Shown here: piece after piece, positions 1 through 9,423 of the stretch | Layout: each line of letters begins with the position of its first letter | Numbering within the stretch: position 1 is the first letter of the stretch | The notes under the pieces: model-generated | Told to the model about the DNA's origin: nothing | Databases searched by the model: none | Seen by the model: the letters and a program-made list of their open reading frames with translations, nothing else | Program-made: the position numbers and the translations under genes | Source of the DNA: Candidatus Wukongarchaeum yapensis | GTDB taxonomy: Archaea; Asgardarchaeota; Wukongarchaeia; Wukongarchaeales; Wukongarchaeaceae | DNA length: 9,423 bases | Direction of reading: 5' to 3' | Assembly (NCBI GenBank): GCA_016840425.1 | Contig: JAEOSI010000075.1 | Location: 1 to 9,423 of the forward strand

Positions 1-5
1 TGTTT

Positions 6-995
6 TTGTCTAAGATTTCTAAGTTGTGTAAGCGTAGGAAGAGAGCTGTTTCTCCTGTTGTTGCCACAGTACTACTCATCGCTATAACTGTTGCCGCAGC
101 CGCCATGGTATTCCTCGTCGTAATGCCCATGATAAGCGGTTCACCAGAACCAGTAGTACAAAGCGTAGATTCATGGCAAGACGCTAATACTAACGGTCTT
201 TGTGATAAAGTTACTGTAACTGTCCGTAATATGGGTACTGCGGATACGAGTGTTAAAAGCGCTGATCTGTTAAAAGACAATGTAAAAGTGGATTCATGGG
301 CACTGGAAGAGGAAAAAAGTCTTGATTCTGCAAGTAAGGTAGCTATAACTCTCAGCACAGACACTGCAGCAGATGAATTAGAGGCAGGCGACACTATAAA
401 GGTCCGTGTAACTACGGATGACGACACAGCAACAAGCCTAGAGTATACCACTCCGGGTCAATTTACTGGCGATACGACCACAATGCGCTTGGTAATTAAA
501 GCATGGAGCTATCAAGACGAAGGAACAGGAGACACCCAAAAATATGATGATACTACTAAAATACAATCGCTTGACGGTGATTGGGGTCCCTCCCTAGCTG
601 GTCAAGTTACTCACCTCTACTATGCAACCGGTACGAGTGATCGATATTATGATGGTGTATTCGTACAATTCGACGGATATAATACTGGCACCTATGACCC
701 GACAATCCACATCTACATAAAAGACGGTCATTATAGCAACAGTTGGCACCACTATGACGTGTTTTTTGCCGGTACAGGTACTGATCCTGATTGGACTGTT
801 GATCAAACTCACCAGGATCAAGGGCCTTGGGCTGGTGCTACTGCCTGGGATGATGCTCAAGATGAAACTGGTTTAGAGCTTACAAAAGCTTTAGATGATT
901 CTGGTTGGTCAGGTGTTACCGCTTCAGGTGATTTTTGGCTTTTCATAAGGATCTGGGACGCTTCGGTAGACAGTATTTCGCTAACTTTAAGCTAA
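6..995 (+). CDS. Archaeal type IV pilin (Pilin_N/DUF1628-type N-terminus) with an additional C-terminal beta-rich domain; candidate major or adhesive pilin
   Basis: Basic leader and class III cleavage site KRRKRA|VSPVVATVLLIAITVAAAAMVFLVV (mature V15 at nt 48). Pilin-type strands follow (VTVTVRNMG, LEAGDTIKVRVTT), then about 170 extra residues. The window opens TG-TTT-TTG in frame, so the true start may be an xTG codon split by the window edge. Confidence 0.9.
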   Translation: MSKISKLCKRRKRAVSPVVATVLLIAITVAAAAMVFLVVMPMISGSPEPVVQSVDSWQDANTNGLCDKVTVTVRNMGTADTSVKSADLLKDNVKVDSWALEEEKSLDSASKVAITLSTDTAADELEAGDTIKVRVTTDDDTATSLEYTTPGQFTGDTTTMRLVIKAWSYQDEGTGDTQKYDDTTKIQSLDGDWGPSLAGQVTHLYYATGTSDRYYDGVFVQFDGYNTGTYDPTIHIYIKDGHYSNSWHHYDVFFAGTGTDPDWTVDQTHQDQGPWAGATAWDDAQDETGLELTKALDDSGWSGVTASGDFWLFIRIWDASVDSISLTLS

Positions 996-1001
996 GGTTT
1001 T

Positions 1002-1080
1002 AAGAAGGAGAAAGAAAATTAAATATTTTTTAGATTAAAATTTTTCTTTCTTCTTTTTCTTCCTATTTTTTCTTTCACTT
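1002..1080 (+). terminator. Terminator-like hairpin plus oligo-T tract after the pilin gene
   Basis: 1002-1018 (AAGAAGGAGAAAGAAAA) can pair with 1042-1058 (TTTTCTTTCTTCTTTTT), giving 17 bp with two G-U pairs. A T/C tract continues to 1080. It starts 6 nt after the stop codon. Archaeal terminators are typically oligo-U rich. Confidence 0.6.
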
Positions 1081-1199
1081 AAATTGGGTGTAAAAAGAAG
1101 AGAAAGGCTTAGTAATAATGTTAGTTTCGTGATTTAAGTAATTTTAATCCGTTTTTGGTCTTTAGGTGGTATATTTTATCTTTGTTTTTCTCCGTGATC

Positions 1200-1207
1200 T
1201 TTATAAC
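1200..1207 (+). promoter_or_regulatory. Possible TATA box for the downstream genes
   Basis: TTTATAAC resembles the archaeal TATA consensus and lies in the 399-nt gap before the next gene. There is no clear BRE and the region is very T-rich, so this is weak. Confidence 0.2.
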
Positions 1208-1394
1208 TTTCTTAAACGTATATTTAATCTGATAATTACTGATTGCTGGGTTTAAGTTTTTTCTTTGTTCGATTTTAGCTCAGTTTTCAGATTGAATTAC
1301 GGGTTTTTTCGCTATCCTTCAGAGTAAATACGGGTAAACGTTGTTTTATGAGGAGAGAAAGGTTGGAGTTTCTTTTAAGGAAGTGTGTGTTTTC

Positions 1395-2276
1395 ATGCTG
1401 TTGATTCGGTGTTTTAAGCCTTTTAAGAAAGGTAGACGAGGAGTTAGCCCTATTGTGGCCACTATGTTAATTTTCTCCATTATTATTATCGGAGTTGCTG
1501 CTGGAGTGGTTTTGATTTTACCCCTTGTTGATCGTATGAACGATGAATCCACCCTACGATCTATGGAAAACTATCTTCTGGATTTTGATGGAGGAGTTTT
1601 AAGTGTTAGCCGTCAAGGAGTTAATGCGAAAACAGTAATTGATGTTTATATGGATGATGGCCGCTTATTATTTTCGGATGGAGCTTCAATCAGCTTAATT
1701 ATGAGCTTGGAGGATACAGGTCTTCCTAATCAGACAATTCTAGGCACTACGAGTTTAGGTTCTCTAGATTATAGATTAGATGTTAGTCGTAATTTGCTTG
1801 GTTTGGATCCGGGAGAGTCGAGATATGTGAATGGACCTGACAGATCTGTTCCCCGTAGTTTCGTGATTGGTAGCAACCCTAAGTATCCGTTTATGTCCAA
1901 TGTGACAGAATCCAGAGACCCTGATGGTGTGGGTTACCAAGTAAGTTTAAACTATAGAGTTGGGGTTGAGGTATTTAATGATACGACTAGCGGTATTATG
2001 TATGTTACAGTTTATATGATCAGGTTGGTGGAGGCGAGAACTAGTCTTCTCTCCGCTGGCGGTGTTGTAAGGGAAAGTTATAGTTTAGTTGCTATGAACA
2101 ATGGTACAACTCAAACTACTCAAAAGTTTACCACTACGGGACTAACTCGTCTTGTGATTAGCGCGTCTATTAACGGTGTGGACGATTCTGAAGTTCCTTA
2201 TGATTTTGCCACAACTAATAGTGAGGTGGTAGTTAAAACGATTGTGACGGAAGTTTTCGCCTCTTACACTACGTAG
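1395..2276 (+). CDS. Minor pilin-like protein with class III signal peptide (resembles DUF7289-type minor pilins)
   Basis: KKGRRG|VSPIVATMLIFSIIIIGVAAGVVLILP, then a long amphipathic helix (MNDESTLRSMENYLLDFDGGVLSV) and a beta-rich body with 4 N-x-S/T sequons. ATG 1395 is preferred over TTG 1341 because GGAAGTG lies at 1379-1385 and it gives a normal-length leader. Confidence 0.8.
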   Translation: MLLIRCFKPFKKGRRGVSPIVATMLIFSIIIIGVAAGVVLILPLVDRMNDESTLRSMENYLLDFDGGVLSVSRQGVNAKTVIDVYMDDGRLLFSDGASISLIMSLEDTGLPNQTILGTTSLGSLDYRLDVSRNLLGLDPGESRYVNGPDRSVPRSFVIGSNPKYPFMSNVTESRDPDGVGYQVSLNYRVGVEVFNDTTSGIMYVTVYMIRLVEARTSLLSAGGVVRESYSLVAMNNGTTQTTQKFTTTGLTRLVISASINGVDDSEVPYDFATTNSEVVVKTIVTEVFASYTT

Positions 2277-2817: not shown

Positions 2818-2887
2818 AAGGTAAAACGGTTTCGTTTAAGGTTTATAGTTTTTGCACAGTAAATCGTTAAAAATGAGGCAAAAACGG

Positions 2888-4582
2888 ATGAAAATTAAAA
2901 GAAAAAATAAGAATAAGGAAGAAGCTGCAGAAATGAAGGAAAAAGAGGAAAAAACTGGCGAACCTAGTCTTGAATCGTTATTGAGGGAAGATTTTGATGA
3001 AGAGTTTGATATGGAAGGCTTTAAAGCTTCTTTCGCCGAGGCAGGAGGAGATGTTGATCTTTCTATACCTGTTTCTGACATAGAGAAGCACCCTCTTCTT
3101 GAAGAGACTTATCCTCTAATAGATCCTTTTGCCTATTGTTTGATTCAAACAGATCCGCAGACGAAACAGACAAGATATATTGTTGTTGAGACGCCTCTTA
3201 GTTCGAAAGAAGAAGAGATCTTGAGAATGGTTAGAGAAATCATGGTTGAAGAGCTTGACATCGATTTTTCCGTCCTTAAGGATAAGAAAAAAGCTTCAGA
3301 ATACCTAAGAAAGAAGTTGATAGAAATCGTTAAGGATTATAGTATTAATGTTAGTGATGAAGGCTTTGACAAGATATTTTACTATATAACGCGAGATTTT
3401 GTGGGCATGGGTTCAATAGAACCCTTGTTAAAAGATCACATGATAGAAGATATTAGCTGTGACGGGGTAGGCATACCTATCTATATTTGGCACAGAAAAT
3501 ACGAGTCTATCCCCACTAACGTAGCGTTTAATGAAGCTGAAGAGCTTGACTCTTTAATAATTAAGATGGCTCAAAGATCCGGAAGGCACATAAGCGTGGC
3601 AAGCCCCCTCTTAGACGCTTCACTCCCTGATGGTAGTCGTATACAACTAACATTCGGGAAAGAAGTAACCCAGAGAGGAAGCACCTTTACTATAAGAAAG
3701 TTCAGGGCAGATCCGCTAACCATAAGCGATCTCCTAGCTTTTAACACGTTAGACCCTATGTTGGCTGCCTTTTTCTGGTTCACTATAGAGCACCGTATCA
3801 GCGTCCTCGTAGCAGGCGGAGTAGCTTCAGGAAAAACCACCATATTAAACTGTTTGAGCATGTTCATAAAACCTGACCTAAAAATAATCTCGATAGAAGA
3901 CACAGCCGAGCTAAACATACCCCATCAGAACTGGATTCCAAGCGTTGCTAGAACAGGGTTTGGCGGAGCAGGACAGCCCGGTGGCAGGAAGAGGGGAGAG
4001 ATCACGATGTTTGACCTGCTCAAAGCAGCTTTAAGACAGCGCCCTGACTACATAGTAGTCGGCGAAATCAGGGGTGAAGAATCTTACACCCTATTTCAGG
4101 CTTTAAGCGTTGGTCATGGCGGCTTGTCAACAATGCACTCTGATAGTGTTGAAGGTGTTATTCGCCGTCTTGAAAGCGAACCTATGAACATTCCAAGGGC
4201 CATGTTACAAGCCCTTGACTTGGTAGCTATTCAAAGAAAGGTGAGGTATAGAGGTCGCCATATTCGTAGAGCTATTGTTGTTCAGGAAATTGTTGGTACA
4301 GATCCCGTGACTAATGAGCTGATAACCAATAAGCTTTTTGCATGGAACCCTAAGGAGGATACCTTTACTTTCTTTGGGCGTAGTTACACTTTGGAAGAGA
4401 TTTCGGAAAATACTGGGATGAGTGAGAAGGATATTTGGGATGAAATTGAGAGGCGTAAAACCGTTCTCAGATGGATGGTTAAGAAAAGAATCTCAAACTA
4501 TCTCGATGTAGGGGGGCTGATAAGGGAGTATTATAGTAATCCTGAAGAGATGCATGCAAGGGCGGTTCGTGAGTTGATCTAA
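2888..4582 (+). CDS. pilB: Type IV pilus assembly ATPase (archaeal PilB; FlaI/TadA/VirB11 family)
   Basis: Walker A GGVASGKT (nt 3815-3838), Asp box ISIEDTAEL, Walker B RQRPDYIVVGEIRGEE, His box GHGGLSTMHS and the family motif EDISCDG. ATG 2888 has GAGG at 2875-2878; alternative starts are 2852 and 2873. Confidence 0.95.
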   Translation: MKIKRKNKNKEEAAEMKEKEEKTGEPSLESLLREDFDEEFDMEGFKASFAEAGGDVDLSIPVSDIEKHPLLEETYPLIDPFAYCLIQTDPQTKQTRYIVVETPLSSKEEEILRMVREIMVEELDIDFSVLKDKKKASEYLRKKLIEIVKDYSINVSDEGFDKIFYYITRDFVGMGSIEPLLKDHMIEDISCDGVGIPIYIWHRKYESIPTNVAFNEAEELDSLIIKMAQRSGRHISVASPLLDASLPDGSRIQLTFGKEVTQRGSTFTIRKFRADPLTISDLLAFNTLDPMLAAFFWFTIEHRISVLVAGGVASGKTTILNCLSMFIKPDLKIISIEDTAELNIPHQNWIPSVARTGFGGAGQPGGRKRGEITMFDLLKAALRQRPDYIVVGEIRGEESYTLFQALSVGHGGLSTMHSDSVEGVIRRLESEPMNIPRAMLQALDLVAIQRKVRYRGRHIRRAIVVQEIVGTDPVTNELITNKLFAWNPKEDTFTFFGRSYTLEEISENTGMSEKDIWDEIERRKTVLRWMVKKRISNYLDVGGLIREYYSNPEEMHARAVRELI

Positions 4583-4637
4583 AATTGTTTCCTTCCTTTA
4601 ATATCGGTTTTATATGGGTTTTCGTGAGGCGATAATT

Positions 4638-5504
4638 ATGAGTAAAACTATTCGTAGATTTGCTTATCTCCGAATTGGTAAATATTTAGAGCCCCATTTG
4701 GATAAGTTTTCTGACCTTGGTTTAGCCCTACGTAAAGCAGGACTAGACGTTTCTTTGAGGACTTATTTAAGCCTAACCATATTTTCAACAATACTTGCAG
4801 GCCTTTTAGGTTTCCTTATTCCTCTTATCTTAACTTTCCTAATTTTGGGACATTTTATGTGGTTGTTAGCCATCATTCTTTCCCCCTTATGTGCGCTAAT
4901 AACCTTTGGAGCCTTCCTTATTTACCCAAACAGTAAAGCTGGTGCAAGGAAAAGAAAGATAGAGACCGCTCTCCCGTCTACGGCAAGTTACATGGCCGCC
5001 ATGACAAGCGCCGGAGTCCCTCCTGACCGCGTGATAATGAGCCTCGCTAACGAAGAGATCGATGAAGAGATAAGGGAAGAAGCAAAAAACATAGCAAGAG
5101 ACCTCGAAATGCTTGGATACGACATTTTAAAGGCTTTAAAGGAAGCAGCTAAAAGAGCTCCTTCTGCAAAGTATTCAGCATTTCTTGAGGGAATCATCGC
5201 GACAATAGTTTCTGGAGGCGACTTGAAAGATTACATGAGTACTGAAGCTAAAAGCCTGATGCGGTTAAAAGAACAAGAAACAAGGGAATTTATAAGCCAG
5301 TTAGGTGTAGTAGCGGAGCTTTTCCTCACAGGAGCAGTGGTAGCTCCCCTCTTCTTCGTGGTTATGCTATCTGTTATGAGCGCTGTGGGTGGAGGCGGAG
5401 GCGAATCAAGCGCCGTAGGATTATACGCCATTGTTTATGGCCTAATACCCTTGATAATGGTCGCAATAGTAATAATCACGGAATCAATGACACCCCTTGA
5501 ATAA
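4638..5504 (+). CDS. pilC: Type IV pilus membrane platform protein (PilC/TadC-like, T2SSF domain), copy 1
   Basis: Two N-terminal hydrophobic helices, a T2SSF-like segment (RKRKIETALPSTASYMAAMTSAGVP ... GYDILKALKEAAKRAPS) and two C-terminal hydrophobic helices. It directly follows the ATPase. ATG 4638 has GAGGCGAT just upstream; the ORF track start is 4614. Confidence 0.88.
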   Translation: MSKTIRRFAYLRIGKYLEPHLDKFSDLGLALRKAGLDVSLRTYLSLTIFSTILAGLLGFLIPLILTFLILGHFMWLLAIILSPLCALITFGAFLIYPNSKAGARKRKIETALPSTASYMAAMTSAGVPPDRVIMSLANEEIDEEIREEAKNIARDLEMLGYDILKALKEAAKRAPSAKYSAFLEGIIATIVSGGDLKDYMSTEAKSLMRLKEQETREFISQLGVVAELFLTGAVVAPLFFVVMLSVMSAVGGGGGESSAVGLYAIVYGLIPLIMVAIVIITESMTPLE

Positions 5505-5530: not shown

Positions 5531-6403
5531 ATGCCAAAAGTTTCTAAGAAAAAAATCCAGTGGACTTGGATAATTTCAGGAGTTATAGCCTTAATATTTT
5601 TCACTTTAAACCTCATAGCTTACGCTAGTTCCAGAGACGCTGATGATTCAATAATTCCAGGTCTCGGTCTTCAAGACGCCTATATACTAACGATAATAAT
5701 CTTTCTTTTCCCCCCAACCATCGTACAAACTATTGACGCTCGATGGCGTAGTAAAATAGACGAAAACCTGCCTAACCTACTACGAGATGTCTCTGATGCC
5801 CAAAAAACAGGGTTAACTCTCCCAAAAGCGATCTCTGAAAGCTCGAAAAGAAACTATGGACCCTTGACTGACGAGCTGAAAAAAATGAGTAGCAAGATAT
5901 CATGGGGAGTGCCCTTTGATAAAGCAATGATTGCTTTTGCCGAAAGCTGTGACACATCCCTTGTAAAACGTGCTGCTTTATTGATTTTAGAAGCGGAGAA
6001 AAGCGGGGGTTTAATCGAAGATATTTTTGACGCTAGCTACGAACATGTGAACAAGATCTTAGACCTACGCAGGGAAAGACTAGGCCAAATGAAACCCTAT
6101 ACTTGGATCATCTATGCTTCCTACTTTGTTTTCCTAATTGTTGCCATTGTCCTGCTTCAAACTTTCTTTCAAGAACTTGGAGGCGCCACTACAGGCGAAG
6201 GCGGTCTTATACGTAACGTAGATGCCGACAAATATGAATGGGCCTTTCTTGATATGCTCATGATTGAAGCCATTTTCGCAGGACTTGTTGCAGGGAAAAT
6301 GGGCGAAGGATCACTAGTAAGAGGGTTGAAACACAGCGTTATACTGATTACTACAGGCTGGATCCTTTTCAGGATACTTATGGGCATAGAATTAGTAGGT
6401 TAA
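5531..6403 (+). CDS. pilC: Type IV pilus membrane platform protein (PilC/TadC-like, T2SSF domain), copy 2
   Basis: Typical T2SSF segment KIDENLPNLLRDVSDAQKTGLTLPKAI ... YGPLTDEL ... ISWGVPFDKAM, C-terminal IFAGLVAGKMGEGSLVRGLKHS and several TM helices. GGAG lies at 5517-5520. Confidence 0.9.
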   Translation: MPKVSKKKIQWTWIISGVIALIFFTLNLIAYASSRDADDSIIPGLGLQDAYILTIIIFLFPPTIVQTIDARWRSKIDENLPNLLRDVSDAQKTGLTLPKAISESSKRNYGPLTDELKKMSSKISWGVPFDKAMIAFAESCDTSLVKRAALLILEAEKSGGLIEDIFDASYEHVNKILDLRRERLGQMKPYTWIIYASYFVFLIVAIVLLQTFFQELGGATTGEGGLIRNVDADKYEWAFLDMLMIEAIFAGLVAGKMGEGSLVRGLKHSVILITTGWILFRILMGIELVG

Positions 6404-6491: not shown

Positions 6492-6926
6492 ATGGGTAAA
6501 ACAGAGGAGATGTTAGAACAAATTTTAGAAAAAATTGACGAGATGGCAGGCTCGATACAAAAGTTTGGCTTTGTATTAGTTCAAATAGCAAGCAAACTTG
6601 ATGAAGTGGCCAAGGGAGGAGGTTTCGGCGTTAAGACTTCTGTTCAAACGGTTGATGTAGATCTAAGCCCTATCGAGGAGCGTCTTGAAGAGATCGCTAA
6701 AGAGACTGTTAAAAAACAAGATTTTGAAGAGTTGCGAAGCGAAGTTGATAAACTGGTAGGTGGAAAGGTTAAGGAGGCAGAAGAAACCGTTAAAAAAGCA
6801 ACCTCCCTTCTAGAACGAGGCCTTGAACTTGTAGACCTTGAATCAAGCCTATTTGACGTTAAAACCTACCTAGAAGAAATGATTTTGGAAAAAAAGGCTT
6901 TAGAAGAAATTGAAGAAAAAGAATGA
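6492..6926 (+). CDS. Hypothetical acidic cytoplasmic coiled-coil protein
   Basis: 144 aa with a strong SD, Glu/Lys-rich, with no signal peptide or TM segment. Continuous heptad pattern L8/I11/I15/M18/I22/F25/L29/I32/L36/V39. Confidence 0.8.
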   Translation: MGKTEEMLEQILEKIDEMAGSIQKFGFVLVQIASKLDEVAKGGGFGVKTSVQTVDVDLSPIEERLEEIAKETVKKQDFEELRSEVDKLVGGKVKEAEETVKKATSLLERGLELVDLESSLFDVKTYLEEMILEKKALEEIEEKE

Positions 6927-6971: not shown

Positions 6972-8141
6972 TTGTTTTTTAAACGAGGAAAACGCGGACA
7001 AGCCAGAGCCATAGATTTTGTCGTATCAATAAGCCTCTTCCTTCTCGTAACAAGCCAACTCTTCCTCATAATAATCACCTCGACAAGTCCCTTTACAACA
7101 ACATCAGAAAAACAAACCCTAGAAGAAAAAGCAGAACTCCTCGCAAACAACCTAATAACAAGCCCTGGAACACCCCAGGACTGGGGATTCAACCTCTCCT
7201 CTCAAACTCCTTTCACAATTTTCGGCTTAGGTAAAGCCTCAAACACCCCAGAAATACAAGTTCTTGACGCTTCAAAAATCGCTAGACTAGACCCAAGGCT
7301 TGCAACAAACCCGCTAGCGACTGCCCTAAATATCTACCATATTGATTATAGCCAAGCTCACTCCTCCCTCGGCTTGGACATATCTTTCAAACTACAAATA
7401 CTCCCCCTAATCAATCTCAATATCGCATCATCAACCAACACATCTTTCATAGCAAAGGTTACTGATTACAATAACAACCCCCTCGAAAACATCACCCTTG
7501 AAAACTACATAGTACACCCAAATGGCTCAGTAACAAGTAACTGGCAAAGTAATACAAACTCGAGCGGTATAAATGAAACTCTCATAAACTTGCCCGATGA
7601 TGGAGCCTACGTTTACGCCTCTATAGCCCAGTATGCAGGCTTTGCAGACCTTGCTACAAAGATCATACTCCACAACACCGAAGACCAAGCAATAACCCAA
7701 GAAATCCTCCCCTCCTTCGCCACAGAAGCCAATAAAACAAACGAATGTTACGTCGCACTTGCAGTACCTTCGGAAGCTTCTTCCATCACAGCAAACACCA
7801 CAATCCTCCCCCTAAAACCCGGTGACACTTCCTCACCCCCTATAACTCTAAATCAAAAAGCAGGCTCACCAGAGATCTATGAAGCAAAAACCCAATATCT
7901 CTCAGTAGACACTCCTTCAATGATTATCAGTCGAGCTTCTTACCAAAAAGATGGCTCTTATGAGTACCGTTTATCAATAACCACCATGCCCCTTACCCTA
8001 AGACAAAACAGCCCTGAAAACGCGCCTTATGCGCCCCCATATAACGATGTTGTTGAGCCTGAAACACAGACTGTAACAATAGAAAGAACAGTCATCATTA
8101 GAAACACCATATATAAGCTGGTTCTAACCTGCTGGCAATAA
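6972..8141 (+). CDS. Minor pilin-like protein, RG|Q class III signal, with internal beta-sandwich insertion (resembles DUF7287-type minor pilins)
   Basis: KRGKRG|QARAIDFVVSISLFLLVTSQLFLIII, then LEEKAELLANNLITSPGTPQDW, and C-terminal strands ERTVII ... KLVLTCWQ. Contains 8 N-x-S/T sequons. Confidence 0.82.
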   Translation: MFFKRGKRGQARAIDFVVSISLFLLVTSQLFLIIITSTSPFTTTSEKQTLEEKAELLANNLITSPGTPQDWGFNLSSQTPFTIFGLGKASNTPEIQVLDASKIARLDPRLATNPLATALNIYHIDYSQAHSSLGLDISFKLQILPLINLNIASSTNTSFIAKVTDYNNNPLENITLENYIVHPNGSVTSNWQSNTNSSGINETLINLPDDGAYVYASIAQYAGFADLATKIILHNTEDQAITQEILPSFATEANKTNECYVALAVPSEASSITANTTILPLKPGDTSSPPITLNQKAGSPEIYEAKTQYLSVDTPSMIISRASYQKDGSYEYRLSITTMPLTLRQNSPENAPYAPPYNDVVEPETQTVTIERTVIIRNTIYKLVLTCWQ

Positions 8142-8224
8142 AAAAGAATCATATCCATTAAAAAAACCAGAAACCTGAGGAAAAACCTGAAAAATACGTT
8201 TTAAGCGAGTAAGGTGTAACAAGA

Positions 8225-8701
8225 TTGTTAATAAAACCGTTAAAAGTTTTTGGAAAACATGGTCAAAGTAAAGGCAAACGCGGCCAACTTCATATCATAG
8301 AAACCCTTGTAGCAATAGCCATAATACTCGCTTTAACTGTCACCCTATACCAGATTGAACTCCAACCCTCGGAAGAAAACCCCGTAGAAGAACTCCAAGA
8401 GAAAGGATTGGAATCATTAAGCGCTGCAGATAACGTAGGAATTCTAAGACCAGCAGTATACACCACCACCGATGAAAACCTAGAAACCCTAAAAGTTTTC
8501 CTAGACCAATCCCTACCCCCCACAGTACTTTACACGTTAAGCGTACAACCAATAAATGATACGGGAGAGCCCACACTCTTGATACAAAAAGGAGAACCCC
8601 CAACCAGATCTGACGTGGCTGTAGCAACCTACCTCCTTTACGGTTATAATAACGTGTATAACCCCCAAATAGTGAGCTTAACTTTATGGTACCTCTCATA
8701 A
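8225..8701 (+). CDS. Minor pilin-like protein, RG|Q class III signal (resembles DUF7288-type minor pilins)
   Basis: KGKRG|QLHIIETLVAIAIILALTVTLY, helix EELQEKGLESLSAADNVGILR and terminal strand IVSLTLWY. AGGTG lies at 8212-8216 before the TTG start. Confidence 0.82.
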   Translation: MLIKPLKVFGKHGQSKGKRGQLHIIETLVAIAIILALTVTLYQIELQPSEENPVEELQEKGLESLSAADNVGILRPAVYTTTDENLETLKVFLDQSLPPTVLYTLSVQPINDTGEPTLLIQKGEPPTRSDVAVATYLLYGYNNVYNPQIVSLTLWYLS

Positions 8702-8744
8702 TCGCCAAACAGGAAGAATTCAAGCCAAAAGAGGTAAAAGCTTC

Positions 8745-9423
8745 ATGAGAAATCCTGGGAATAAAAAAGGTTCAAAAAAGAAGCGCAAGAAAAGAAGGGC
8801 ACAAGTCTTCATAATGAGCACACTAGTAATCGCCATATACCTCCTTTTAATCGCCGAAGTCTACCTCGAAACAAACCGCGTAAACATTGAAGAAATAACG
8901 CCAGAAGAATCCATAATATACGTTCATTCCAACGCGAAAAAAGAATGTTTCAACATTTTAGAAGCATACCTTGCAAACTACACCCAAAACCTCTCATCAA
9001 AACCTGTTTTAGAACAATCCTTCCTAGAATTCTTACCCCTCATGGCTTGGTATCTAGGACAAAAAGGATACATTACCACAATAAAAAATGTAACAAGCCT
9101 TCACTTCGAGAACAGCACAACAATCCCCGGAACCAACCACACATACTCTCTAGCAAACGTCAGCATAAACATGCACATTAAAAGTCAAAATGTAGAAATA
9201 AATGACACCTTTGAAGCCTACGTAGCTGTTCACATGAATGTCACAGATTACCTAACTCCGGATTACGAAGTAGCCTTATGGAAAACCTACTCCCCCAACG
9301 GAACCATAATCCCCATAACCAACGCCATAGTAAACATGACAGTAAACGGAACACCCTCCCTAGCAACTTTAAACGGTGATGGCACATACACCCTAACTAC
9401 AACCGACACCCCCCTAGACTCTG
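8745..9423 (+). CDS. Minor pilin-like protein, RA|Q class III signal, partial at the 3' end (resembles DUF7261-type minor pilins); not in the supplied ORF track
   Basis: Translated by hand from ATG 8745 (GAGGT at 8731-8735): MRNPGNKKGSKKKRKKRRA|QVFIMSTLVIAIYLLLIAEVYLETNRV ... PITNAIVNMTVNGTPSLATLNGDGTYTLTTTDTPLDS. Open for 226 codons to the window end, with 11 N-x-S/T sequons. Confidence 0.88.
   Translation, partial: MRNPGNKKGSKKKRKKRRAQVFIMSTLVIAIYLLLIAEVYLETNRVNIEEITPEESIIYVHSNAKKECFNILEAYLANYTQNLSSKPVLEQSFLEFLPLMAWYLGQKGYITTIKNVTSLHFENSTTIPGTNHTYSLANVSINMHIKSQNVEINDTFEAYVAVHMNVTDYLTPDYEVALWKTYSPNGTIIPITNAIVNMTVNGTPSLATLNGDGTYTLTTTDTPLDS

Follow-up and report, generated by a model that had tools for sequence, protein, structure and literature searches.

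A type IV pilin of Candidatus Wukongarchaeum yapensis with a predicted C-terminal jelly-roll module, encoded in a tandem pilin cassette

Pilins that carry an additional, bulky module are known from bacteria. In Streptococcus sanguinis, the pilin PilC bears a concanavalin-A-like lectin and PilB a vWA module (PMC9934059, PMC8179133). A survey of modular pilins made in 2021 used a bacterial pilin signature, and archaea are unmentioned in its text (Raynaud et al. 2021, PMC8179133). Haloferax volcanii has six pilins, PilA1-6, which are assembled by PilB3/PilC3 and possess a nearly identical H-domain, and each of which can build a pilus (Esquivel et al. 2013, in PMC4371748). In Asgard archaea, ordered type IV filament loci were found to be rare by a 2026 survey (PMC13705601). 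We analyzed such a locus from the Asgard archaeon Candidatus Wukongarchaeum yapensis. The window, that is the whole stretch of 9,423 nucleotides that was analyzed, is an entire contig (C49); the draft genome to which it belongs measures 2.16 Mb, with a completeness of 92%. Every gene of this 9.4-kb type IV pilus locus lies on the + strand, and the locus is ordered and complete, with pilins, an ATPase, two platform genes and minor pilins. Its first gene encodes a pilin with a second, C-terminal domain, and this modular pilin is the subject of the present analysis. To our knowledge, nothing is known of what Asgard pili bind.

Like PilB and PilC of S. sanguinis, the Wukongarchaeum protein consists of a small class III-signal pilin module, a short flexible linker and a bulky, independently folding module; the module of PilC, a beta-sandwich lectin, follows an immunoglobulin (Ig)-like fold. 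Unlike the S. sanguinis proteins, it is an archaeal pilin of the PilA type whose module belongs to a different, unclassified family, and its gene is placed in a cassette of paralogs with a common helix and not among distinct minor pilins. PilC has been shown to sit at the filament tip and to bind glycans, which for the Asgard pilin are possibilities. A few archaeal cases mentioned in passing (PMC13705601) also join a pilin-type N-terminus to an added outer or adhesive domain, as the Asgard pilin does, but they differ from it in pilus system, host phylum and domain family.

With PilA1-6 of H. volcanii, the Wukongarchaeum locus has in common a set of paralogs with a near-identical H-domain, a RAVS-type cleavage site, a PilB3_C ATPase and outer parts that differ between paralogs; the H. 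volcanii PilA paralogs differ in adhesive behaviour. However, the H. volcanii pilins are small, single-domain and scattered over the genome, whereas the three Asgard pilin genes are in tandem beside the machinery and two of them encode large extra domains. The platform protein is split over two genes in the Asgard locus, unlike in H. volcanii. The grafting of binding modules onto bacterial pilins was therefore already known, as was a pilin set with a common H-domain in H. volcanii. What is new is an unclassified module family, displayed via pilins and PEP-CTERM anchors in both prokaryotic domains, a tandem pilin cassette in which the helix is homogenised and the outer domains vary, and the occurrence in an Asgard archaeon.

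The GTG start codon begins 1 nt before the window, whose first two letters are its second and third bases. The true pilin has 331 amino acids, beginning with MF, and is two residues longer than the protein read from the window; the complete gene is present in a fuller assembly of the same species (L025:4268-5263). Residue numbers given here follow the + strand open reading frame 6..995, with residue 1 at nt 6. The features of the pilin gene are:

1..995, + strand: modular type IV pilin gene, cut at its 5' end by the contig edge, with the stop codon at 993-995 (open reading frame list and Pilin_N match)
3..47, + strand: class III signal peptide leader, positively charged and ending in KRA before VS (VSPVVATVLLIAI), as read from the sequence
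48..134, + strand: hydrophobic H-domain or N-terminal alpha-helix, residues 15-43, the polymerisation core (AlphaFold helix 17-43, per-residue confidence (pLDDT) above 90)
150..449, + strand: Ig-like beta-sandwich of the pilin proper, residues 49-148 (AlphaFold strands)
450..494, + strand: flexible linker with PGQFTGDTTT, residues 149-163 (pLDDT below 50 for residues 154-160)
495..992, + strand: C-terminal beta-jelly-roll module of an unclassified family, residues 164-329 (AlphaFold, VIA-align, Foldseek and a 46-member alignment)
1..167, + strand: 5' module repeated among paralogs, comprising the leader, the H-domain and the first globular residues (DNA identity)

An earlier, sequence-only reading of this DNA had singled out nt 474-992 as a second domain rich in aromatic residues. 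This interval is exactly codons 157-329 of the open reading frame, and the residue counts given for it were exact, with 9 of the 11 Trp, 11 of the 12 Tyr and all 6 His falling within it. The motifs cited were also in place (TSLEYTTPG from residue 143, GHYSNSWHHYD from residue 241 and GDFWLFIRIWDASVDSISLTLS from residue 308). Trp, Tyr and His together amount to 26 in the 173 residues of 157-329, compared to 3 in the 156 residues in front (Fisher p = 1.9e-5).

A full-length AlphaFold model was obtained, with its alignment verified for fragment placement. The model had a mean pLDDT of 86.9 and a global score (pTM) of only 0.57, and contained a helix at residues 17-43, a sandwich at 49-148 and a second all-beta domain at 165-328. 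The low pTM of the whole protein, though both halves are confident, indicates that the relative orientation of the two domains is undefined. When the module was folded alone, AlphaFold gave a pLDDT of 90.4 and a pTM of 0.87. Thus the single continuous pilin fold that would have spoken against a second domain was not seen; two domains were modelled, with a disordered linker between them. The pilin end had been proposed near residue 150, in agreement with the model, in which the last sandwich strand covers residues 142-148 and the next strand starts at 165, and with the disjoint homolog sets described below; by the model, the pilin ends at about residue 148. The alternating strands noticed at the C-terminus likewise correspond to the last two modelled strands, 310-317 and 319-328, which hold the most conserved motif of the module family (R315, W317 and D322).

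Homologs were collected by an exhaustive HMMER search of 1.84 billion representatives, which gave 228 matches at E up to 0.001, of which 150 were listed. Among these 150, the matches fell into two disjoint sets, one covering residues 1 to about 156 and the other residues 164-328 approximately, and both halves were present in only two relatives (P0003 and P0007). Many of the front-half relatives are complete pilins of 140-172 amino acids. The statement that most archaeal pilins have a single domain did not prove to be the rule in this front-half family, since about half of the 111 listed relatives are longer than 250 amino acids and contain other extra domains. By Pfam, these include CarboxypepD_reg, Big_1, the LamG-like 3-keto-disaccharide hydrolase fold, F5/8 type C and Ig-like domains, among others. 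The proposed swapping of the outer domain was indeed found: P0004 and P0005, for instance, join this pilin front to other domains, and further cases are in the Pfam tally. Taken together with the structural matches given below, the AlphaFold models bear out a separate beta-sandwich of the jelly-roll, carbohydrate-binding-module type, joined to a complete pilin by a flexible linker.

The front half was assigned to the archaeal pilins by several searches. Pilin_N (PF07790) was matched at 31.6 bits, with a cut-off of 25.2, and TIGR02537 at 32.5 bits, with a cut-off of 20. Prepilin-peptidase cleavage is predicted between A14 and V15 (RA|VS), and the RAVS site is listed for H. volcanii PilA4-6 (PMC4371748). 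In Foldseek comparisons, the front half superposed on solved archaeal pilins, the best being that of Pyrobaculum calidifontis (8fk7_A, E 1.1e-6, template modelling (TM) score by target 0.59), followed by the Aap pilin 8q30 (0.55) and S. solfataricus 6w8x (0.52). The Ig-like part matched CARDB weakly (E 0.0024). Among named relatives, the one nearest to the front half is from a metagenome-assembled genome (MAG) of Candidatus Heimdallarchaeota. Compared to a 74%-identical ortholog, the gene is under purifying selection, with ratios of nonsynonymous to synonymous substitution rates (dN/dS) of 0.11 for the helix, 0.52 for the Ig domain and 0.33 for the module. The pilin C-terminus (SISLTLS) has no PEP motif and no basic tail, and PF07589 was confined to the bacterial homologs of the module.

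The structural relatives of the module were searched with VIA-align and Foldseek. The best VIA-align matches were a chondroitin-sulfate-binding module (8wab_B, Z 10.0, 141 residues, 3.5 A) and an alginate-binding module (7vbo_A, Z 9.0), followed by a PAPP-A domain (Z 8.9) and a member of carbohydrate-binding module (CBM) family 32 (9vak_B, Z 8.6). Most of the top 50 neighbours were CBM6, CBM32 or CBM35 structures. For structures of the CBM type, 126-141 residues were aligned at a root-mean-square deviation of 3.1-3.5 A and 11-13% sequence identity. Foldseek gave CBM15 1gny (E 2.7e-4) and 8wab (E 4.7e-4). The fold is therefore common to the Asgard module and to CBM jelly-rolls (8wab, 7vbo, CBM32, CBM35, CBM6 and CBM15), but the Asgard module has no profile match to these, and no member of its family was found attached to an enzyme. 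What this structural comparison names is the predicted fold class of the module, not its ligand.

At the sequence level, the module matched no Pfam family at E up to 1, and its trimmed domains matched no NCBIfam entry. Several apparent leads were set aside. A PDB profile search returned only WD40 proteins, via an LRLWD-like motif, and these were considered spurious. EDSAP-1 (NCBIfam) gave a partial match to full-length P0006 that was below the cut-off (E 8.7e-11), and matched 0 of 46 tail-trimmed domains, so it is derived from the tail. An ESM Atlas feature search of the module reached a best score of 0.81, which is within noise, and the Atlas shape search returned fold-level rows only (TM 0.5-0.6), including CBM96/F5_F8, phage and DUF642 PEP-CTERM proteins, with no family link.

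Alignment of 46 copies of the module showed the conserved motifs SFQDEG, DGxWxP, YYATG, YFD, WHHY and a terminal LRLW(D/N)AxVDxxxL. The positions D190, P195, G209, D216, F222, G241, Y243, D271, R315, W317 and D322 were nearly invariant, and the region 255-306 contained many insertions and deletions. The aromatics had been taken as a sign of a special binding surface. This was not borne out, because 16 of the 26 Trp, Tyr and His positions are aromatic in more than 80% of the family, bacterial members included (among them 169, 193, 205, 206, 214, 215, 237, 243, 247, 249, 250 and 317). The Trp, Tyr and His content of the window's module, 14.4%, is at the high end of the family (mean 10.7 +/- 2.3%). 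From the alignment, aromatic richness appears to be largely a hallmark of the fold family, and it gives no evidence of a special binding face. Conserved residues located in predicted loops, namely D190, W193, Y205, Y214, D216, Y243, W247, H248 and D271, could form a site shared by the family.

Most copies of the module were found in bacterial proteins of 200-250 amino acids that consist of a Sec signal, the module and a PEP-CTERM tail, such as P0043, 'PEP-CTERM sorting domain-containing protein [Gammaproteobacteria bacterium]', from a Gammaproteobacteria MAG. These homologs are 28-38% identical to the pilin module over about 90% of its length, with profile E down to 7e-57. They carry the same module, but with a Sec signal and a C-terminal PEP-CTERM anchor in place of the N-terminal pilin. 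Some proteins contain two tandem copies, for example one of Candidatus Eisenbacteria, and other partners of the module are a C-type lectin domain (one member), Ig-like domains and TPR repeats. In archaea, a class of pilins with a Q-type leader bears the module C-terminally; one member is annotated from a Nanoarchaeota MAG, and the contig of another encodes an Rpb5-type RNA polymerase subunit. The module also occurs inside a DUF7288-type pilin, P0047. Every context found for it is one of surface display.

In a maximum-likelihood tree, the copies linked to Pilin_N formed one clade (support 97/88), five of the six Q-type pilin copies another (100/99), and the PEP-CTERM copies were separate (90/86). 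The separate pilin-linked clades indicate that the module was grafted onto pilins more than once. Outside its own genome, the module was found in one genome of another family (G234), where a stand-alone modular pilin of 325 amino acids is encoded at L003:1024-2001 and not in a pilus locus. The neighbours of this gene are a zinc-ribbon protein gene and a gene for a 396-amino acid protein that by eye resembles Xaa-Pro aminopeptidase. Two of the bacterial PEP-CTERM homologs are also stand-alone genes (L029/L030:4217-7699, and L031/L032:1275-2366 and 9165-13017), and their neighbours encode GGDEF/EAL and PilZ proteins or a GGDEF protein together with a hybrid histidine kinase. These cyclic di-GMP gene neighbours are a faint hint (n = 2) of a biofilm link for the module.

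The region upstream of the window was recovered from the fuller assembly L025 (GCA_030587675.2), which was reached through the cluster representative P0009 (172 amino acids) and to which the whole window aligned gap-free at 99.7% identity. In L025, two further pilin genes are located directly upstream, in the order 376, 172 and 331 amino acids, with the window's gene third. The 376-amino acid paralog (L025:2207-3337, P0004 type) shares the front half, but its extra domain, which has about 220 residues and abundant Gly, Asp, Phe and Trp, is another one. PA14 was suggested for this extra domain by an Atlas score of 0.85, and since neither Pfam (E up to 1) nor PDB sequence searches gave a match, it was kept as a lead only. 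The 172-amino acid paralog is a plain pilin without an extra domain.

A 243-nt direct repeat occurs three times in L025 and covers codons 1-56 of each of the three pilin genes plus about 75 nt ahead of them. Its upstream part includes a AAAGTTTATTTTATTTTTT box, plus GGGAGTG just before the GTG. Accordingly, nt 1..167 of the window are 98.2% identical to L025:2208-2374 and 97% identical to L025:3503-3636. Codons 1-45 are 97-99% identical among the three L025 paralogs but only 83-90% identical to the orthologs on L021, a related contig that carries 172- and 329-amino acid pilin genes, which indicates that the 5' modules have been homogenised within the lineage. The cassette was seen in L025, L026 and L021. 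Four other metagenomes, from sediment, mangrove and marsh, were also compared with the window, and in three of them contigs branch at 134 or 167 into the other two paralogs. The 5' repeat is the likely cause of the contig break at the window start, and because it broke the assembly there, a single Pilin_N protein is left in the organism's own assembly. Directly before the cassette, a gene for a 255-amino acid KaiC/RecA-like ATPase was observed (PF06745, weak DUF7125; L025:1224-1991 and L021:8251-9018). It recalls archaellar ArlH and may be a regulator or a part of the pilus machine.

Downstream of the modular pilin gene, the window contains the following:

996..1340, + strand: AT-rich intergenic region with a GC content of 0.31 and several T5-T6 tracts right after the pilin stop (composition)
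1341..2276, + strand: second pilin-like gene, probably a minor pilin, with the class III leader GRRG before VSPIVAT and weak DUF7289 and Pilin_N matches
2329-2817, + strand: small membrane protein gene (open reading frame list)
2852..4582, + strand: PilB3-type assembly ATPase, T2SSE plus PilB3_C (PF00437, E 7.5e-39; PF23989, 29.2 bits, cut-off 27)
4614-5504 and 5531-6403, + strand: two platform-protein genes of the T2SSF, PilC/TadC type (PF00482, E 1.2e-16 and 1.1e-14)
6492-6926, + strand: gene for a 144-amino acid Glu/Lys-rich protein without signal peptide or family match, between the platform genes and the downstream pilin-like genes
6972-8141, + strand: pilin-like gene, DUF7287, with a K/R-G/A-Q leader (Pfam)
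8225-8701, + strand: pilin-like gene, DUF7288, with a K/R-G/A-Q leader (Pfam)
8745-9422, + strand: open-ended pilin-like gene, 226 amino acids, with a K/R-G/A-Q leader

Oligo-T tracts terminate archaeal transcription. The region 996..1340 is, from its composition, a plausible archaeal terminator followed by the next promoter. The 144-amino acid Glu/Lys-rich protein is probably a coiled coil and is also kept in L025 and L027. In the region 7001-9423, the three downstream pilin-like genes are C- and A-rich, with a composition clearly unlike the rest of the locus, and GC skew turns from about +0.26 to -0.45 near position 7000 while all genes remain on the + strand. A prepilin peptidase gene (Peptidase_A24, 29.3 bits, above the cut-off) was identified on another contig of the same genome, C118. 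The genome also encodes a true actin (PF00022, 444.6 bits; 0 of 14 control prokaryotes matched). Two further actin-family genes, C97:541-1704 and C20:3187-4386 (minus strand), matched the Pfam Actin model in permuted order, with model positions 63/69-409 encoded ahead of 5-70.

Our preferred explanation, which we consider probable though well short of certain, is that the window's first gene encodes an archaeal adhesion pilin of the PilA type that developed into a modular pilin, with the jelly-roll hung outside the filament as a ligand-binding module. By sequence and model, the protein and its genome show traits of an archaeal type IV pilin, namely a class III signal, a helix and sandwich, an ATPase, a platform and a peptidase. 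The build of a modular pilin was found as well, since the linker is disordered, the module folds alone (pTM 0.87) and the module occurs without a pilin in PEP-CTERM proteins. The helix would be polymerised into a type IV pilus by the downstream PilB3-like ATPase and the two PilC-like platform proteins. The jelly-roll would hang outside the filament and bind a ligand, for which a polysaccharide or another glycan appears most likely; judged from the fold, glycan binding by the module is plausible. One machine would probably use all three paralogs, alone or mixed, via their common helix, as in the case of H. volcanii PilA1-6.

Several results weigh against this explanation. No ligand is known for any member of the module family, and no sequence link to any CBM or lectin family was found in Pfam, NCBIfam or PDB profile searches. 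The Z of 10 is only modestly above the 7-8 usual for models without a clear match, and protein-binding domains of the same fold score Z 7-9 (PAPP-A 8.9, IFT25 7.9, XRCC1 7.2 and DOC 7.1). Of the multi-domain members scanned and the longer proteins searched, none was seen to be fused to a carbohydrate-active enzyme, which is weak evidence. Moreover, the module is seldom met within the phylum: of 301 genomes covered by a profile search, only its own and the other-family genome mentioned above had it, and it was not found in a same-genus genome that is 87% complete, which marks it as an accessory trait.

The sequence-only reading had gone further and taken the protein to be an abundant pilin, so that the whole filament would be decorated with binding domains. 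This was not supported, because it assumed the only pilin of the locus, yet L025 has two more directly upstream. The contig starts inside the repeat, and the upstream paralogs share the promoter-like region and the helix. The 331-amino acid pilin may make up the shaft, be mixed into it or be placed at the tip, like PilB and PilC of S. sanguinis. That the 331-amino acid pilin is the major, abundant subunit, and the whole pilus a multivalent lectin-like rod, is in our view a possible but rather doubtful arrangement. The gene has its own promoter-like region and T-rich tracts after its stop, its helix is identical to those of the paralogs, and the linker has the length and flexibility to let the 18-kDa module be displayed all along the shaft. 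The six H. volcanii pilins with a common H-domain can each be the major pilin (PMC4371748). The 331-amino acid pilin is also the sole protein passing Pilin_N in its own assembly, although this is partly an artefact, as the upstream paralogs were left unassembled. Against this, in L025, L026 and L021 the modular pilin gene is immediately preceded by that of the plain 172-amino acid paralog, which shares the promoter-like region and the helix and would be an equally good shaft subunit, and the characterised bacterial modular pilins are minor and located at the tip (PMC9934059, PMC8179133).

A module of this fold might instead bind a protein, such as a surface protein of partner or kin cells in cell-cell recognition. 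The domains of PAPP-A, IFT25, XRCC1 and DOC and the ligand-binding domains of Eph receptors are among its structural neighbours, the missing enzyme fusions would fit, and Nanoarchaeota-type archaea, whose way of life is host-attached, carry the module on pilins. Even so, a protein ligand seems unlikely to us, because polysaccharide-binding modules account for three of the four best neighbours and for most of the top 50, and a common polysaccharide fits better with a family that spans Gammaproteobacteria, Eisenbacteria, Nanoarchaeota and Asgard archaea.

Another possibility is that the module is structural and has no specific ligand; as a coat on the outside, it would make the filament thicker or more stable, or protect it, for instance from proteases or from viruses whose receptors are pili. 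Most of the conserved residues, most aromatics among them, look fold-defining and lie in or near strands, the region 255-306 is rich in insertions and deletions across the family, and archaeal viruses are known to attach to pili (PMC13705601). However, the stand-alone bacterial PEP-CTERM copies have no filament to coat, and a mere spacer would have no use for the conserved loop residues D190, W193, Y205, D216, Y243, W247 and D271; such a purely structural role is therefore very unlikely.

It is also highly improbable that the protein is no pilus subunit and acts as a membrane-held or short-pseudopilus class III-signal protein that captures polysaccharide, like the Sulfolobus bindosome. Archaeal class III signals do occur on substrate-binding proteins (bindosome: PMC4371748, PMC13705601), and the module fold is of a sugar-binding type. 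But the front half corresponds to an entire pilin, Ig-like domain included, like solved pilus subunits, and not to a solute-binding protein, the locus has six or more pilin-like genes and no transporter, and the leader, the H-domain and the PilB3_C ATPase are all of the adhesion-pilus type.

The metal-binding adhesin also suggested by the sequence-only reading, in which the His/Asp-rich stretch GHYSNSWHHYD would chelate a transition metal or bind a mineral, was dismissed as a main function and is barely credible: all six His do fall in the module, and 13.9% of its residues are Asp, but only two of the six His are conserved (37 of 46 members have H249 and 26 of 45 have H248, whereas H203, H235, H242 and H269 are not conserved), which speaks against a His-based metal site, WHHY begins a beta-strand among core-type aromatics, no metal-binding family was matched, and a structural Ca2+ site, possible as in many CBMs, would not make a metal-binding adhesin.

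Returning to the modular adhesion pilin, the Asgard locus provides a complete and ordered pilus system whose putative adhesive part can be named and excised. The module represents a family of about 165 residues without a Pfam entry, which reaches the surface in both prokaryotic domains through three anchoring routes that are unrelated to each other (PEP-CTERM, and two or three types of pilin), and the identification of a ligand for one member would annotate hundreds of hypothetical proteins. The homogenised helix together with swappable outer domains suggests a simple way of retargeting one archaeal pilus machine. In a more speculative form, which has only a small chance of being right, the three pilins would be interchangeable and polymerised by one machine through a core helix that gene conversion keeps uniform, one bare, one PA14-like (a lead only) and one with the jelly-roll; filaments could be coated lengthwise with different lectin-like modules, and the jelly-roll could grip exopolysaccharide made by partner bacteria. 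Should a bacterial exopolysaccharide be the ligand, the module would bear on how Asgard archaea attach to their partners, and such a grip, if true, would offer a tangible means of attachment in the syntrophic lifestyle from which eukaryotes are proposed to have arisen.

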